A stretch of 64,000 nucleotides of DNA. It comes from a virus (lineage: Duplodnaviria; Caudoviricetes). Each line of letters begins with the position of its first letter. Position 1 is the first letter of the stretch. The notes beneath the pieces were generated by a model that ran no database searches, had not been told where the DNA came from, and saw only the letters and a list, made by a program, of their open reading frames with translations. Both the position numbers and the translations under genes were made by a program. Location: IMG/VR virus record IMGVR_UViG_3300047551_002158; one strand, 5' to 3'. This document shows positions 3,613 through 10,261 of this stretch, one piece after another.

Positions 3613-4470
3613 ATGTTGGCATTTAATCAAATTGGAAATCTTGGTAGACTCGGAAATCAAATGTTCGAGTATGCTGCTTTGCGAGGAATTGCTTTCTATC
3701 ACGGATACGATTGGTGTATTCCTCCTTATAGTAAAAAGGGTATTGAAAATTACAGTCTTCATTACTGTTTTAAGTTAGAATCTGTGCAGGAAGATAATCT
3801 AAATTATCTTGATCATTATCAGTATGTACAAGAAAGGTTTTTTCATTTTGATGAAGAACTTTTTGAAAACTGTCCAGACAATGTAAGTCTTCATGGATTC
3901 TTTCAATCGGAAAAATACTTCAAACATATTTCTGATGAAATTCGTAAAGACTTTACCTTTCACGATGAGCATTTGGGACCGTGTAAAGAGATGATGGATA
4001 CCATAGAAGGACAAGAACCAATTATGCTTCACGTTCGTCGTGGTGATCCAAATCTAGTTGACCCTCGTGGATTTAAATGGAGTTATACTCAATGCGGAGA
4101 TCAACATCCAGTTCAACCTCTTGAATATTATGAAAAGGCTTTATCTGAGTTTGATGATAGTCAACCAGTAGTTGTATTTTCAGATTCTCCTGAGTGGGTT
4201 AAAGAACAAGAATTCTTTTCTAGCGATAGGTTCTTAATTTCAGAACCACAAGAAAAATATGATGATGGATCATATACTCCATATTCAGATTTGTGCTTGA
4301 TGTCTTTATGCTCTCATGCTATTATTGCTAATAGTAGTTTAAGTTGGTGGGGTGCTTGGTTGATTTCAAATCCAAACAAAAAAGTCATTGCTCCCAAAAT
4401 GTGGTTTGGTCCTGCATATGCTGATAAAGATACAAAAGACCTTTATTGTTCAGATTGGAAAGTGTTATGA
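3613..4470 (+). CDS. GT11 alpha-1,2-fucosyltransferase-like protein (copy 2)
   Basis: GRLGNQMFEYA, HVRRGD, IANSSLSWWGAWL motifs. Confidence 0.9.
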   Translation: MLAFNQIGNLGRLGNQMFEYAALRGIAFYHGYDWCIPPYSKKGIENYSLHYCFKLESVQEDNLNYLDHYQYVQERFFHFDEELFENCPDNVSLHGFFQSEKYFKHISDEIRKDFTFHDEHLGPCKEMMDTIEGQEPIMLHVRRGDPNLVDPRGFKWSYTQCGDQHPVQPLEYYEKALSEFDDSQPVVVFSDSPEWVKEQEFFSSDRFLISEPQEKYDDGSYTPYSDLCLMSLCSHAIIANSSLSWWGAWLISNPNKKVIAPKMWFGPAYADKDTKDLYCSDWKVL

Positions 4471-5294: not shown

Positions 5295-6433
5295 AAATTG
5301 GAGTAATCGGAGCTGGGAGACTTGGAATTTGTTTTGCTCTCCTTTGCGAACAAGCGGGTTATGATGTAGTTGTATCTGATATTAGAGAAGACTATATTCA
5401 AGATCTCAAAAATAAAAAGATTTCTACTAATGAACCTGAGGTTCAAGAACTTCTTTCTAAGAGTACAAAACTAAAAGCAACTATAAGTAATCTAGATGTA
5501 ATTGATGAGTGTGATCTAATTTATACTTTAGTTGCCACTCCATCTCTACCATCTGGAGATTATGATGTAAGTGCTGTTTGGAAAGTTGTAAATGATGTAC
5601 AATCAGCACCAAATGTTAAAGGTAAAACCTTTGTTGTTGGATGTACTACCAATCCTGGAGACTGTGAGTTATTCCAAAAACAATTAGAACCTTATGGAGT
5701 TGATGTGTTTTATAATCCAGAGTTTATCGCACAGGGATCCATCATCCGAGATTTGAGACGTGCTGATATGGTCTTGATAGGTGGAAAGAGAAATGAAGTT
5801 TATTATCAACTTTGTGAACTTTATAATAAAATTCAAGAAACTCCACCGAGTATTAATATTATGTCTACCACTGCTGCTGAACTTGTGAAGTTGGCAGTGA
5901 ACTGTTTCCTCACAACTAAAATTAGTTATGCTAATATGGTCGGTGAAGTTATGACTTTGGCAGGTCTAGAGGATGAAATCTCCACTGTTCTTGGAGCAAT
6001 TGGTGATGATAGTAGAGTTGGTAGAAAATATCTTAATTATGGATATGGGTTTGGTGGTCCGTGCTTACCAAGAGACAATCGTTCTTTTGCTGCTTATGCA
6101 AAAAAACTTGGATTAGAATATAATCTTGGAAAAACAACAGATGATTTTAATAATGAACACGCTAAGTTTTTGAAAGATTATTTCATTAAAAAGAATGATA
6201 GAAAACTTCCTTTTGCTTTTCATTACATTTCTTATAAGGAAGGGACAGACATTCTCGCAGAAAGTCAACAATATCGCCTTTGTTTAGATTTTCTTAATGA
6301 AGGGTATAAAGTTTATATCTTAGATAATCTTGCTATTCTTGAGCAAGTAAGAGACTACTTAGAAAAAAAATATGAAGATTTAGTAATTGTTAATGGAATT
6401 CCTAATGAAGAAGTTTATTGGATTGAATTATGA
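5291..6433 (+). CDS. ugd: UDP-glucose/GDP-mannose 6-dehydrogenase family protein
   Basis: GAGRLG Rossmann motif, YNPEFIAQG, AELVKLAVN, GFGGPCLPRD catalytic Cys motif. Confidence 0.88.
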   Translation: MKIGVIGAGRLGICFALLCEQAGYDVVVSDIREDYIQDLKNKKISTNEPEVQELLSKSTKLKATISNLDVIDECDLIYTLVATPSLPSGDYDVSAVWKVVNDVQSAPNVKGKTFVVGCTTNPGDCELFQKQLEPYGVDVFYNPEFIAQGSIIRDLRRADMVLIGGKRNEVYYQLCELYNKIQETPPSINIMSTTAAELVKLAVNCFLTTKISYANMVGEVMTLAGLEDEISTVLGAIGDDSRVGRKYLNYGYGFGGPCLPRDNRSFAAYAKKLGLEYNLGKTTDDFNNEHAKFLKDYFIKKNDRKLPFAFHYISYKEGTDILAESQQYRLCLDFLNEGYKVYILDNLAILEQVRDYLEKKYEDLVIVNGIPNEEVYWIEL

Positions 6434-7236
6434 ACGAATTAATAGACAAAAATAAATCTACATATAAACTTAAAAATATTGGTCCAATATATTATTTGAA
6501 TCTTGATGGTCAACCAGAGAGACGAAAATATATGGAAGACCAATTTAAATATTGGGAAATTGAAAATTATACTCGCATATCTGCATATGATGGTCGTGAA
6601 GATGACTTGAGTGATATTATTGTTGGTCGTTATCCCGAAATGATGACTTCCGGAGAAGTTGGTTGTATTACTTCTCACTTAAAGGCAATTAAACATTGGT
6701 ATGAAACTTCTAATAGTCCATATGTGATTATTATGGAAGATGATTGCAATCTTGATCTTGTAAAGTATTGGAACTTTACCTGGTCAGATTTTTATGCACA
6801 TATTCCATATGATTGGGACGTAGTTCAAATTGCAATTATTTGTACTGGAGATATTCACGTTAAATTGCATAAGAGATTTGTTAATGATTTTTCAACTGCT
6901 TGTTATTTAATTAATAGACATCACGCAGAAAAACTTTTAAAATTTCACGTTCGTGGTGATAAGTATAAACTTGATAATGGTGTCAAACCTCGTCCAGTTG
7001 CAGATGATTTAATTTATAATTCTGGCAATACTTATTCAATCCCTCTTCTTTTGTATAGGATTGAACTTGGATCGTCTATCCATCCAGAACACGTTGACAT
7101 TTATCATAAGGCAAATTTCAATGCGTTGAGTGAGTTTTGGCAGCAAAATGGTGCTCAGATTGATATTAAAGAGTATATGGACTATGATCCTTACCTTGGT
7201 AGAATAACTGAACCATCAAATCAACAAACCTCTTGA
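6430..7236 (+). CDS. GT25 family glycosyltransferase
   Basis: YYLNLD..PERR, RISAYDG, GEVGCITSH, IIMEDD, STACYLI motifs. Confidence 0.85.
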   Translation: MNELIDKNKSTYKLKNIGPIYYLNLDGQPERRKYMEDQFKYWEIENYTRISAYDGREDDLSDIIVGRYPEMMTSGEVGCITSHLKAIKHWYETSNSPYVIIMEDDCNLDLVKYWNFTWSDFYAHIPYDWDVVQIAIICTGDIHVKLHKRFVNDFSTACYLINRHHAEKLLKFHVRGDKYKLDNGVKPRPVADDLIYNSGNTYSIPLLLYRIELGSSIHPEHVDIYHKANFNALSEFWQQNGAQIDIKEYMDYDPYLGRITEPSNQQTS

Positions 7237-7266
7237 CAACCTTTCAAGTCTCCTCTATACTAAATA
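7233..7266 (+). promoter_or_regulatory. sigma70-type promoter overlapped by a T4-like late promoter, upstream of the porin
   Basis: TTGACA 7233-7238, 17-bp spacer, TATACT 7256-7261, overlapping CTAAATA 7260-7266. Confidence 0.8.
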
Positions 7267-7329
7267 AGTACTTAAGAATTCAGTTGTAATTCTTAACATT
7301 TGTCCTATAGTACAAAATAAAACAAACTT

Positions 7330-8802
7330 ATGAAACTCAAACAACTGATGCTTGCACCTGTTGCTCTGGGAATGGTTGCTCCTGTTGCTGCGAATGCGGC
7401 AGATCTTAATATTGCAGCAGTCAACCAGTATTCTTCTGAACAGGTCACAAGTGTCTCTCAGTTCTCTGATGTAAAGCCCACTGACTGGGCATATCAAGCA
7501 CTCAGCAATCTCGTAGAGCGTTATGGTTGCGTTGCTGGTTATCCTAATGGAACCTATGGTGGTGGCAAGGCAATGACCCGCTATGAAGCAGCAGCACTAC
7601 TGAATGCCTGTCTTGATCGTGTAACAGAAGTTACCGATGAACTGAAGCGTCTCCAAGCAGAATTTGCTCAGGAACTTGCTGTTCTTCGTGGTCGTGTTGA
7701 TGCTGCTGAGGCACGCATCGGTCAACTGGAAGCAACTCAATTCTCCACCACTACCAAACTGCGTGGTGAAACGACTTTCGTTCTGGGTGGTGTTCCTGGT
7801 TATGATACCAAGGATGATGTAAGCACTCGTACTGCTTTCAACTACGATGTTCGTCTGAACTTCGATACTTCGTTTACTGGTTCGGATCTGCTTCGTACCC
7901 GTCTTCGTTCCTCTAACTTCAGTGCTGATCCTTTCGGTTCTTCTTCTTCCCTGTTCAAACTGGACAAGGCAGACAACTTCTCCAGTGCTAATGGTGATAA
8001 TGTAGTCCTTGACCGTCTGTACTATCAGTTCCCTGCATTCAATAACCGTGCAACCCTGACTGCTGGTGCTAAGGTTCGTAACACCGAAATGGCATGGATT
8101 CCTTCTGCATACAAGTCTGAGGTTCTGGACTTCTTTGCTGTTGCTGGTGCTCCTGGTGTTTATAACAAGGCAACTGGTGCTGGTTTCGGTGCTCTCTGGA
8201 GTCAAGGTAAGACTGGTCTCGTTGCTGGTGTAAACTATGTGGCACAGTCTGGTTCCGATTCCTCCAAAGGTGAGTTTGATGAGACTGGTGCTCTGAACAC
8301 TCTGGCACAAATCGGTTATCGTGGTACTAACTACGGTATTGCATTCGGTTATCGTTATGGTACTGAAGGCACCCGTGTTCGCACCTACAACGGTCTGAAC
8401 GGTGCTTCTGGTACTCTGGTTCCTGGTCAAACCTCCAACGGTTATGCTATCAACGCATACTGGCAACCCAAGCAATCTGGTTGGGTTCCTTCGGTCTCTG
8501 CTGCCTATGGTTGGAACACCGTAAGTGGTACTGAGAGTGCTGCTACCGATAGTCAATCCTGGTTCGCTGGTCTCCAGTGGGCAGATGTGTTTGCTAAAGG
8601 TAATTCTGCTGGTATTGCTGTGGGTCAGGCACCTACGGGTCAAGATCTGGAGTCTGCAACGATGCTTGAAATCTTCTACAAGTATCAAGTTTCGGACAAT
8701 ATCAGCATCACTCCTGCAATCTTCTATGCAAGTGATAATCAGCGCCTGATCGGTGATGCCTCCAAGTGGGGTGGTGTTATCCAGACTAAGTTTACTTTCT
8801 GA
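7330..8802 (+). CDS. som: Cyanobacterial outer-membrane porin (Som/OprB-like, N-terminal SLH domain)
   Basis: Signal peptide; SLH block FSDVKPTDWAYQAL..RYGCVAGYP..TRYEAAALLNACLD; coiled coil; QFSTTTKLRGE barrel start; C-terminal Phe (TKFTF). Confidence 0.93.
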   Translation: MKLKQLMLAPVALGMVAPVAANAADLNIAAVNQYSSEQVTSVSQFSDVKPTDWAYQALSNLVERYGCVAGYPNGTYGGGKAMTRYEAAALLNACLDRVTEVTDELKRLQAEFAQELAVLRGRVDAAEARIGQLEATQFSTTTKLRGETTFVLGGVPGYDTKDDVSTRTAFNYDVRLNFDTSFTGSDLLRTRLRSSNFSADPFGSSSSLFKLDKADNFSSANGDNVVLDRLYYQFPAFNNRATLTAGAKVRNTEMAWIPSAYKSEVLDFFAVAGAPGVYNKATGAGFGALWSQGKTGLVAGVNYVAQSGSDSSKGEFDETGALNTLAQIGYRGTNYGIAFGYRYGTEGTRVRTYNGLNGASGTLVPGQTSNGYAINAYWQPKQSGWVPSVSAAYGWNTVSGTESAATDSQSWFAGLQWADVFAKGNSAGIAVGQAPTGQDLESATMLEIFYKYQVSDNISITPAIFYASDNQRLIGDASKWGGVIQTKFTF

Positions 8803-8825
8803 TAATCTGAAAGTGTGGTAAACTT

Positions 8826-8851
8826 GGAGGGGATAAAACCCCTCCTTTTTA
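8826..8851 (+). terminator. Rho-independent terminator
   Basis: GGAGGGG-ATAAAA-CCCCTCC followed by a T tract. Confidence 0.85.
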
Positions 8852-8866
8852 ATGTGGAGAAATTAA

Positions 8867-9142
8867 ATGTATGATTATTGGGTTGTAACAGAAAGGTCTA
8901 CTGGGAGAGTAATTGCTCATTGTGGTGAAGAAAGAGATGCAATTATGATGTATGAATTTGATACTAATAATAGAAGTTATAGAAAACAGAAGTTCATTAT
9001 GGATCAAGTAATTGATATTACTTCTACTTACGATAAACAACTTCCAGGACAAATTGGGCTTCCTGAAGGTGAAGTAAATCAACTTCAAGAGTTCAAGGTC
9101 AAACTTCCTGAAGGTGAAGGACAACCTGTTAATATCAGGTAA
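8867..9142 (+). CDS. Hypothetical protein
   Basis: 91-aa ORF with GGAG RBS, between porin and pstS. Confidence 0.7.
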   Translation: MYDYWVVTERSTGRVIAHCGEERDAIMMYEFDTNNRSYRKQKFIMDQVIDITSTYDKQLPGQIGLPEGEVNQLQEFKVKLPEGEGQPVNIR

Positions 9143-9149
9143 TTAAAAC

Positions 9150-9179
9150 CTTAACCTTCTCTTAGTTGATTTTTACTTT
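9150..9179 (+). promoter_or_regulatory. Putative cyanobacterial Pho box (SphR/PhoB site)
   Basis: CTTAACCT-tct-CTTAGTTG-att-TTTACTTT: three 8-mers at 11-bp period matching YTTAAYYW at 8/8, 6/8 and 7/8, about 40 bp upstream of pstS. Confidence 0.5.
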
Positions 9180-9217
9180 TATCTCTTTTAGAATTTCTTT
9201 GTAGTTATTCACTTTTT

Positions 9218-10183
9218 ATGAAACTCAAATACATTTTTGCTATTGGTCTGCTTGCTGCTCCTGTTGCTGCTATTGCTGGACCTGCTCTAAATGGTACAGG
9301 TGCCACCTTCCCTGCACCTCTTTATCAACGTTGGTTCCAAGATTATGCACGAACTTCTGGGAGTAGGGTTAATTATCAGTCCGTTGGTTCTGGTGCTGGT
9401 GTTCGTCAATTCCTTGCGGGCACGGTTGACTTCGGAGCAACCGACGAAGCAATCAAACCATCAGAAGCAGCAAAGGTGAAACGTGGTGTCGTTCAAATTC
9501 CTATGATTGGTGGAACGATTGCTGTTGCTTATAACAAACCTGGATGCTCCCTGAAACTCACTCAGAAGCAAACTGTAGACATCTTTGCTGGTCGTATTAA
9601 AGATTGGAGCAAACTACCGAACTGTGGTAATGGTCCTATTCGGGTTGTTCATCGGTCTGATGGTTCTGGAACTACCTTTGCATTCACTAACTCTCTGGAA
9701 GCATTTGGTGGTTGGACTTATGGTGTGAATAAGGCAGTTAAGTGGCCTGTTGGTGTTGGTGGTAAGGGCAATGAAGGTGTTTCTGGAACCATCCGTAACA
9801 CTCCTGGTTCTATCGGTTATGTGAATACTGGATTTATCAAAGCAAACAAACTCCAGGCAGCAGCAATCCAAAATAAGGCAGGCAAGTTCGTTCTTCCTTC
9901 TGCTACCTCTGGTGCTGCTGCTCTGAATAGTATTGCACTTGATAGTAACCTTGCTGGCGAAAATCCCAATCCTTCTGGTGCTGGTGCATATCCTATTTCC
10001 ACTCTGACTTGGGTTCTTGCTTATAAGACTGGTAATGGTGCTAAGGCAGATGATATTCGCAAGGCACTTAACTATGCTCTGAGTTCCAAGGCACAAATGA
10101 TTGCTGATGATTTGGGTTATGTTCCTCTTGCAGGAAGCATTCTCAACAAGGCACGTATCGCTGTGAACCGTATTGGTCAGTAA
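9218..10183 (+). CDS. pstS: Phosphate ABC transporter substrate-binding protein
   Basis: Signal peptide; GTGATFPAPLY, YQSVGSGAG, DFGATD, RSDGSGTT, AYPISTLTW motifs. Confidence 0.95.
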   Translation: MKLKYIFAIGLLAAPVAAIAGPALNGTGATFPAPLYQRWFQDYARTSGSRVNYQSVGSGAGVRQFLAGTVDFGATDEAIKPSEAAKVKRGVVQIPMIGGTIAVAYNKPGCSLKLTQKQTVDIFAGRIKDWSKLPNCGNGPIRVVHRSDGSGTTFAFTNSLEAFGGWTYGVNKAVKWPVGVGGKGNEGVSGTIRNTPGSIGYVNTGFIKANKLQAAAIQNKAGKFVLPSATSGAAALNSIALDSNLAGENPNPSGAGAYPISTLTWVLAYKTGNGAKADDIRKALNYALSSKAQMIADDLGYVPLAGSILNKARIAVNRIGQ

Positions 10184-10223: not shown

Positions 10224-10261
10224 AAAAGGGGCTTGACGCCCCTTTCTTTTTGCTATATAAT
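10224..10261 (+). terminator. Terminator hairpin with an embedded sigma70 promoter for hli
   Basis: AAAGGGGC-TTGAC-GCCCCTTT stem-loop plus T tract; TTGACG 10233-10238, 17 bp, TATAAT 10256-10261. Confidence 0.8.

Follow-up and report, generated by a model that had tools for sequence, protein, structure and literature searches.

Why a lytic cyanophage should carry a gene for a full-size outer-membrane porin, and carry it beside pstS, is the question raised by a 64,000-nt stretch of viral DNA, IMG/VR record IMGVR_UViG_3300047551_002158 (the whole stretch is called the window here, and coordinates are window positions unless a locus is named). The porin gene lies at 7330–8802 and pstS, the gene for a periplasmic phosphate-binding protein, at 9218–10183, both on the + strand. 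Phage pstS is a textbook auxiliary metabolic gene; the entry of phosphate into the periplasm of the infected cell has hardly been considered so far. An initial annotation of this DNA proposed that the phage supplies both the outer-membrane channel and the periplasmic binder as a two-membrane phosphate module, or else that the porin remodels the cell surface for superinfection exclusion. The answer we favour, and place just on the probable side, is that porin and pstS form a host-derived nutrient-uptake cassette of a lytic freshwater T4-like cyanomyovirus, the two products serving consecutive steps under separate regulation. The window encodes the baseplate hub, tail lysozyme, tail tube cap, tail fibres, hli and psbA of such a phage, and among cultured phages it is closest to S-SRM01 (Kyanoviridae), a freshwater phage of Synechococcus, with ~75% nucleotide identity across the porin.

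The porin gene is intact. Its 490-aa product scores 295 bits against the NCBIfam model NF033921 (por_somb; cutoff 100), aligning over residues 39–490 to the entire profile (positions 1–485 of 485), and Pfam recognizes an SLH domain at residues 45–88 (36.6 bits, cutoff 20.8) followed by OprB at 104–490 (55 bits, cutoff 22.9); a PHROGs v4 search returned no family matching it. The translation opens with what reads as a Sec signal peptide (residues 1–23, MKLKQLMLAPVALGMVAPVAANA, followed by AD) and closes with TKFTF, a putative beta-signal with an aromatic end, of which F488 and F490 are invariant in an alignment of 30 sequences. An AlphaFold2 model, for which 30 sequences from phages and hosts were used, has a barrel of 16 strands spanning residues 141–489 with pLDDT mostly 85–95 and a helix at 103–136, within the coiled-coil stalk (~101–138); the SLH domain and stalk are poorly modelled as a monomer. 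Foldseek places the barrel closest to OprB (4GEY), OmpF and OmpM1 (8BYM), with probability 1.00, and the best sequence match in the PDB is again OmpM1, in the SLH–stalk part (E = 3e-14). The sequence and fold marks of a Som-type SLH/OprB porin are all present: the profile score, the SLH domain with its stalk, the 16-strand barrel, and the signal peptide and terminal aromatic residue. The initial reading of a full-length SLH-porin with signal peptide and terminal Phe is borne out, and by its sequence features the gene encodes an intact Som-type porin with predicted outer-membrane location and channel activity.

The gene has been kept by selection. Comparison of the window porin with 79 relatives gives a median ratio of nonsynonymous to synonymous substitution rates (dN/dS) of 0.20, indicative of purifying selection, with the lowest value in the SLH domain (0.08), values of 0.16 in the strands, 0.17 in the periplasmic turns and 0.29 in the stalk, and 0.20 for the predicted external loops pooled; among these loops only L4 (0.43) and the 2-residue L6 exceed the pooled value. 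Phage porins are ~40 residues shorter than host porins, and the loss falls almost wholly in predicted extracellular loops. One subclade of phage porins (loci L008, L028–L030, L040, L041, L047, L065 and L073) has a different N-terminus, MFKSAFAATLAATPLVAGAAFAEPYGPYV... (for example at 4044–4139 of L008), and similarity to the window porin begins there at residue 34–38; the signal-peptide region appears to have been swapped.

Where the porin came from is clear in outline from a search of one genome per species across about 186,000 prokaryote species, in which the best matches are porins of freshwater and brackish Synechococcus and Cyanobium, at 42–58% identity. All 80 phage sequences in a 155-porin tree fall into a single clade (SH-aLRT 99) nested among picocyanobacterial porins; its sister group is the host loci L084–L088, outside which L083 (Synechococcus GFB01) branches next. 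Four of these host loci, L083, L085, L086 and L087, have pstS 170–280 nt downstream of the porin. Phylogeny against host paralogs had been suggested as a check, and it places the phage clade nearest to host porins that stand directly upstream of pstS. When divergent phage porins sampled through a neighbouring gene (GT25, below) are included in a quick tree, the main clade widens to include S-SRM01-like sequences, the porins of L216 and L253 join the L084–L088 host clade, and those of L224 and L252 join another host porin, L158. A single acquisition of all phage porins is rejected on the basis of these placements in different host groups; the scatter indicates that porins entered, or left, these phages more than once.

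Viral contig L253 is informative about how the genes travel. Its porin is 60–64% identical to those of L085–L087, and its PstS is 72–74% identical to the PstS of the same hosts, with which it forms a 4-member clade (support 98); the window porin and PstS are just 57% and 59% identical to those of L253. Both L253 genes are nearest to the L085–L087 pair, which argues that the two genes crossed between host and phage together and that a porin–pstS cassette can move in this way. The main freshwater phage PstS clade has a support of 100 and is separate from marine cyanophage PstS; freshwater phage PstS is at most 58.5% identical to GenBank cyanophage PstS and 66–70% identical to freshwater host PstS.

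Base composition carries traces of the same history. The GC content is 0.48 for the porin and 0.45 for pstS in flanks of ~0.33, and the GC content at third codon positions (GC3) is 0.375 and 0.289, respectively, compared to ~0.2 in neighbouring phage genes; these GC3 values resemble those of the psbA, hli and peroxiredoxin genes of the window. Related host porin genes have 54–69% GC overall. Across the fetched loci, porins have 44–51% GC and flanks 30–40%, with the exception of L013, where the porin lies in a GC-rich tRNA array. The initial description of host-like codons in AT-rich surroundings is right as to the elevation over the flanks and overstated as to the codons, which are well short of host composition; porin and pstS are best described as old, partly ameliorated acquisitions.

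The porin is a common gene in these phages. At least 294 contigs in a scan of IMG/VR encode a relative, and identity to the window porin is 79–94% among the 80 fetched. Among GenBank phage records S-SRM01 is the sole one with such a porin, where it exists as an annotation line only. Most fetched loci have the gene order GT25 glycosyltransferase–porin–(pstS)–hli–orf90–peroxiredoxin–C39-like peptidase–lysozyme, and pstS is directly downstream of the porin in 31 of the 80 porin-anchored viral loci. So that the porin itself did not decide the choice, loci were anchored on the neighbouring GT25 gene, yielding 70 in which the slot is closed by hli. Neither gene is present in 31 of these; full porin alone occupies 21, porin plus pstS 17, and pstS alone 1. 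A full porin is therefore found in 38 of 70 loci and pstS in 18, of which 17 have it directly behind the porin, an association with a Fisher p of 6e-5 (relatedness of the loci uncorrected). On the GT25 tree the slot has undergone at least 12 changes of porin state and at least 15 of pstS state, marking it as a hot spot of cargo turnover.

The GT25–hli slot also takes other genes. In L281 (6045–7975) and L239 (5884–6734) it contains a tandem pair of Phage_OMP (PF24653) genes and, behind them, a pstS sharing 84% identity with its counterpart in the marine phage S-SM1; the combination of an outer-membrane protein with pstS thus occurs in this slot in more than one version. A further set of loci (L213 5898–6779, L220, L223, L230, L231, L243 and L254) encodes SLH proteins of ~290 aa (293 aa in L213), with genes similar to that of L213 in S-PM2 (p170; L284 2432–3271) and S-CREM1 (S-CREM1_199; L285 2435–3313). 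These proteins have a signal peptide, an SLH domain, a stalk and ~150 C-terminal residues ending in GFKF; GenBank names them 'putative S-layer protein' or 'iron uptake porin', and their appearance is that of a mini-barrel anchored by an SLH domain, not of a full porin.

The second gene of the pair encodes a 321-aa PstS with a signal peptide. It scores 267.5 bits against the TIGR00975 equivalog (cutoff 205), belongs to phrog_5385, and retains the motifs GATFP, SVGSGAG, DFGATD and RSDGSGTT in alignment with its nearest solved structures, 7XG8 and 7XG7. Upstream of it, at 9150–9179, is a Pho box of three 8-nt units with an 11-nt period, CTTAACCT-tct-CTTAGTTG-att-TTTACTTT. In a scan of each window position against three PyTTAAPyPy(T/A) units with 3-nt linkers (maximum 24), this site scores 21, more than any other on the + strand of the 64 kb; one site on the - strand equals it. 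A -10 hexamer, TAGAAT (9189–9194), lies 9 nt beyond its end. Nearly all loci of related phages have the motif CTTAACC..CTTAGTGG..TTTAAG at -68 to -82 of pstS, and host pstS genes have similar sites at about -80. The Pho-box-like repeat reported at first sight is thereby confirmed as a conserved element.

The porin has control elements of its own. A sigma-70-type promoter, TTGACA (7233–7238) and TATACT (7256–7261) with a 17-nt spacer, matches the consensus at 11 of 12 positions, so that what had been called a perfect promoter is a near-perfect one; a TAAATA box like those of T4-type late promoters (7261–7266) overlaps its -10 hexamer, and an intrinsic terminator, GGAGGGG-ATAAAA-CCCCTCC (8826–8845) followed by TTTTT to 8850, lies 3' of the gene, the late motif and terminator both as first annotated. 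Among 60 distinct upstream regions of related phage porins, TTGAC occurs at -35 in 45 (9% in background) and TAAATA at -115 to -25 in 46 (5% in background). The two motifs are conserved across otherwise differing upstream sequences and retained where the porin follows a tRNA. By analogy with T4-like phages, we infer that they represent an early promoter for the host sigma factor plus a late promoter.

The same leader offered a candidate Pho box, which we rejected: the TTAA-containing repeats downstream of the -10 hexamer form an inverted repeat, one arm at 7272–7280 and the other at 7288–7296, and are not direct repeats spaced by 11 nt. This inverted repeat in the 5' leader (7272–7296) consists of TTAAGAATT, a 7-nt loop and AATTCTTAA; other classes of porin leader have different hairpins at the equivalent position. 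The case for a conserved RNA element here is weak, with folding z-scores of -1.2, +0.2 and -2.2, and an Rfam search gave nothing over threshold. Possible traces of expression come from RNA data sets. A freshwater metatranscriptome, X19, includes contigs that match the genes without a difference: three pieces fall in the porin, one in pstS and one in GT25, and none in the intergenic parts; the library possibly contains DNA, and these contigs are not proof of transcription. Very deep riverine RNA contigs at 8140–8390 match at 90–95% and, because of that identity and their GC-rich continuations, are probably host porin transcripts.

On the reading we favour, the phage porin probably keeps nutrients, phosphate included, entering the infected cell. 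The porin would be made from the constitutive-type early promoter and again from the late-type promoter, exported and inserted by the Sec and BAM machineries of the host, and anchored to peptidoglycan by its SLH domain. During the shut-off of host expression it would replace or supplement the major porin of the host, and small solutes, phosphate among them, would diffuse through it into the periplasm. In a phosphate-starved host, PhoR/PhoB would turn on phage pstS via the Pho box, and phage PstS would pass periplasmic phosphate to the PstCAB importer of the host. Porin and PstS would serve consecutive steps while being regulated apart, and the porin would be useful alone too.

Several results weigh against this reading. 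The NCBIfam family of the porin is named 'iron uptake porin'. No Pho box was found upstream of the porin in the window, where the best site scores 17/24, a common score window-wide, or upstream of pstS-linked host porins, where scores are 12–14/24. In the PstS tree the main phage clade neighbours a broad group of host sequences and not specifically porin-linked host PstS. Full-porin loci without pstS number 21 of 38, from which we conclude that the porin is valuable alone, and a second group of contigs has the porin in a phage tRNA array, away from pstS. The association between the two genes in the GT25-anchored loci is suggestive rather than proven, because the loci are related and an independent-pairs test has five usable pairs (p ~0.5, underpowered). 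The mini-barrel SLH proteins hint that anchoring, and not the pore, may be the selected function. As regards the module first proposed, the host pstS synteny, the joint transfer in L253 and the Pho box at pstS speak for it, and the porin without a Pho box and the many porins without pstS speak against a porin dedicated to phosphate; the synteny in relatives holds for 17 of the 18 pstS genes in the slot and for 17 of the 38 full porins.

Most of these points are shared by the rival that survives best, namely that the protein is a general-purpose or iron-related porin sustaining the main inorganic-ion channel of the host, with pstS as unrelated cargo that happens to share a variable slot. The family name, the loci without pstS, the porins in tRNA arrays and the missing Pho box all fit it, as do the frequent state changes of both genes and the capacity of the slot to take other cargo, exemplified by L216 (7489–8742), in which a full S-adenosyl-L-homocysteine hydrolase gene stands directly 3' of the divergent phage porin in the usual place of pstS. 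This rival is at odds with the single occurrence among 18 of pstS in the slot without a porin, with the linkage of the closest host porins to pstS, and with the joint transfer of the pair in L253, and we consider it rather unlikely.

A second rival holds that the loop-trimmed phage porin replaces receptor porins on the surface and blocks superinfection, or the adsorption of progeny to infected cells and debris. In its favour, many phages use porins as receptors, lambdoid phages encode porins of their own (Lc and NmpC), the shortening of the phage proteins is concentrated in predicted extracellular loops, and related phages conserve the late-type promoter box. Against it, purifying selection acts on the external loops, L4 and L6 being the least constrained, unlike the diversification expected of an arms race; an added porin would leave in place the host porins already in the membrane, and we know of no receptor for these phages. 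Surface remodelling, the other role suggested in the initial annotation, has gained no support from the loop data, and we give it a low probability.

We attach a similarly low probability to a third rival, in which the SLH tether between outer membrane and peptidoglycan is what has been selected, keeping the envelope intact until lysis, and the pore is incidental. It is the SLH domain that is the most constrained part of the protein; the L213-type SLH protein, with its short C-terminal segment ending in Phe, occupies the same slot; and OmpM1 (8BYM), which its PDB entry describes as an outer membrane attachment porin, ranks with the best structural matches. Purifying selection acts on the full barrel, the constriction loop L3 and the remaining loops alike, which would be unexpected if the tether alone mattered, and the link to pstS is left unexplained. 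Finally, a chimeric assembly of host DNA and phage contig, or a fresh, functionless piece of host DNA, is suggested by nothing but the GC of the two genes above that of the flanks and is almost certainly wrong, given a gene order shared with cultured S-SRM01 and with dozens of contigs obtained independently in many studies, a best host identity of just 58%, GC3 far under host values, dN/dS of ~0.2 and promoter-type motifs conserved in the upstream regions across phage loci.

With the nutrient-uptake cassette as the preferred explanation, the system can be compared to those already described. In the literature searched we found no paper discussing a Som-type porin in a cyanophage, and the S-SRM01 paper does not mention its porin. 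Among hosts, PMM0709 ('phoE') of Prochlorococcus MED4, an OprB-family porin gene beside phosphorus genes, is up 10–700 fold under phosphorus stress (PMC5451487) and has a predicted SphR site (PMC1906773), and the Som porin SYNW2224 of Synechococcus WH8102 is up 2.1 fold at low phosphate (PMC3865332). Held against Pho-regulon porins in the sense of these two and of E. coli PhoE, the window porin shares the linkage to a phosphate-uptake gene and lacks a Pho box at its promoter. It resembles host Som porins (NF033921) in its succession of signal peptide, SLH domain, coiled coil, OprB-type barrel and terminal Phe and, like the nearest of them, in having its gene directly upstream of pstS. It differs from them in being a gene of a lytic phage, in its identity of at most 58%, in the ~40 residues missing from external loops, in its AT-shifted codons and in having its own early and late promoter-type motifs.

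That an outer-membrane protein might work together with phage PstS is not a new idea. The preprint 10.1101/2021.07.20.453049 reports in its title that P-SSM2 PstS integrates into the system for phosphate uptake of cyanobacteria, and it proposes that gp247, the neighbour of pstS in P-SSM2, is porin-like and helps phosphate to enter. In marine cyanomyoviruses a small signal-peptide protein regularly precedes pstS; P-SSM2 gp247 (formerly DUF680) matches PF24653, 'Cyanophage outer membrane protein like beta barrel domain', as do the small open reading frames (ORFs) of L281. The PF24653 (Phage_OMP) profile has no match in the window porin, for which Pfam gives SLH and OprB alone. Both proteins are encoded immediately upstream of a phage pstS, and both are signal-peptide proteins of a beta-barrel-like outer-membrane type; the families are unrelated, Phage_OMP having ~120 aa and no SLH domain and the window porin 490 aa and 16 strands. 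The porin may work like Phage_OMP without being a member of its family, and porin–pstS is a second and unrelated solution of the Phage_OMP–pstS design, here with a bona fide full-size porin. The window PstS is like that of P-SSM2 (7XG7/7XG8) in its phrog_5385 membership, intact phosphate-binding motifs and upstream Pho box, and unlike marine phage PstS in belonging to a separate, freshwater lineage.

Two further comparisons concern the porin itself. OmpM1 of Veillonella parvula (8BYM/8BYS), an SLH-anchored trimeric porin, is the sole solved structure with the same layout of SLH domain, stalk and 16-strand barrel; its barrel is ~13% identical to that of the window porin, and it comes from a distant diderm Firmicute and is not phage-borne. 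The lambdoid coliphage and prophage porins Lc (of PA-2) and NmpC are phage-encoded general porins in the host outer membrane; they are OmpC-family proteins of temperate phages, are expressed from the prophage in lysogenic conversion, and change the porin make-up of the host surface. The window porin is unlike them in its SLH/OprB family, in its lytic T4-like phage and in its linkage to a nutrient-uptake gene.

These results make a full-size, host-type porin one of the commoner accessory genes of freshwater T4-like cyanophages, present in 38 of 70 loci, in at least 294 contigs and in one cultured phage. We would go further only tentatively, rather short of an even chance, and propose that freshwater cyanomyoviruses routinely install their own loop-trimmed major porin and that porin–pstS cassettes are swapped as units with picocyanobacteria. 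If this were true, viruses would directly set the outer-membrane permeability and phosphate flux of infected lake cells, and, together with the marine Phage_OMP–pstS arrangement, phages of both habitats would couple an outer-membrane protein to PstS. A viral effect on outer-membrane permeability and lake phosphorus cycling is directly testable with S-SRM01 and its host, Synechococcus sp. KCZYC6. The exchange of major porins between picocyanobacteria and phages also bears on porin evolution and on how 'host' porin genes in metagenomes are read.

The second genomic home of the porin is the tRNA array, in which it lies between tRNA-Gly(tcc) and tRNA-Val(tac) (L006, L013, L016, L031, L046, L061 and L068; for example L046 7798–9927). 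The presence of the gene in both the GT25–hli slot and this array indicates that it has moved between at least two genomic hot spots. In this group the TAAATA box is the sole upstream element kept. In L013, where the porin flanks have 53% GC, ARAGORN calls a permuted tmRNA-like gene at 6427–6898 within an array of 15 tRNAs; this may be a false call.

Between porin and pstS in the window there is, as first noted, one small ORF on the + strand (8867–9142, 91 aa). It matches no family in Pfam, PHROGs or NCBIfam, occurs in 3 of 80 related loci (L002, L030 and L065), and is a sporadic insert outside the conserved porin–pstS pair. The Rfam 'freshwater-2' RNA motif has a sub-threshold match at 8796–8869, across the porin terminator (24.9 bits against a gathering threshold of 49.9, E = 0.83), probably by chance. 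On the far side, pstS is followed by its own intrinsic terminator (10225–10250, + strand), the hairpin AAAGGGGC-TTGAC-GCCCCTTT, and by the promoter of the next gene, hli (TTGACG-17-TATAAT, 10233–10261, + strand). The loop and 3' arm of the hairpin overlap the -35 hexamer of this promoter, most of which lies within the loop, and terminator and promoter are therefore interleaved over 10225–10261.

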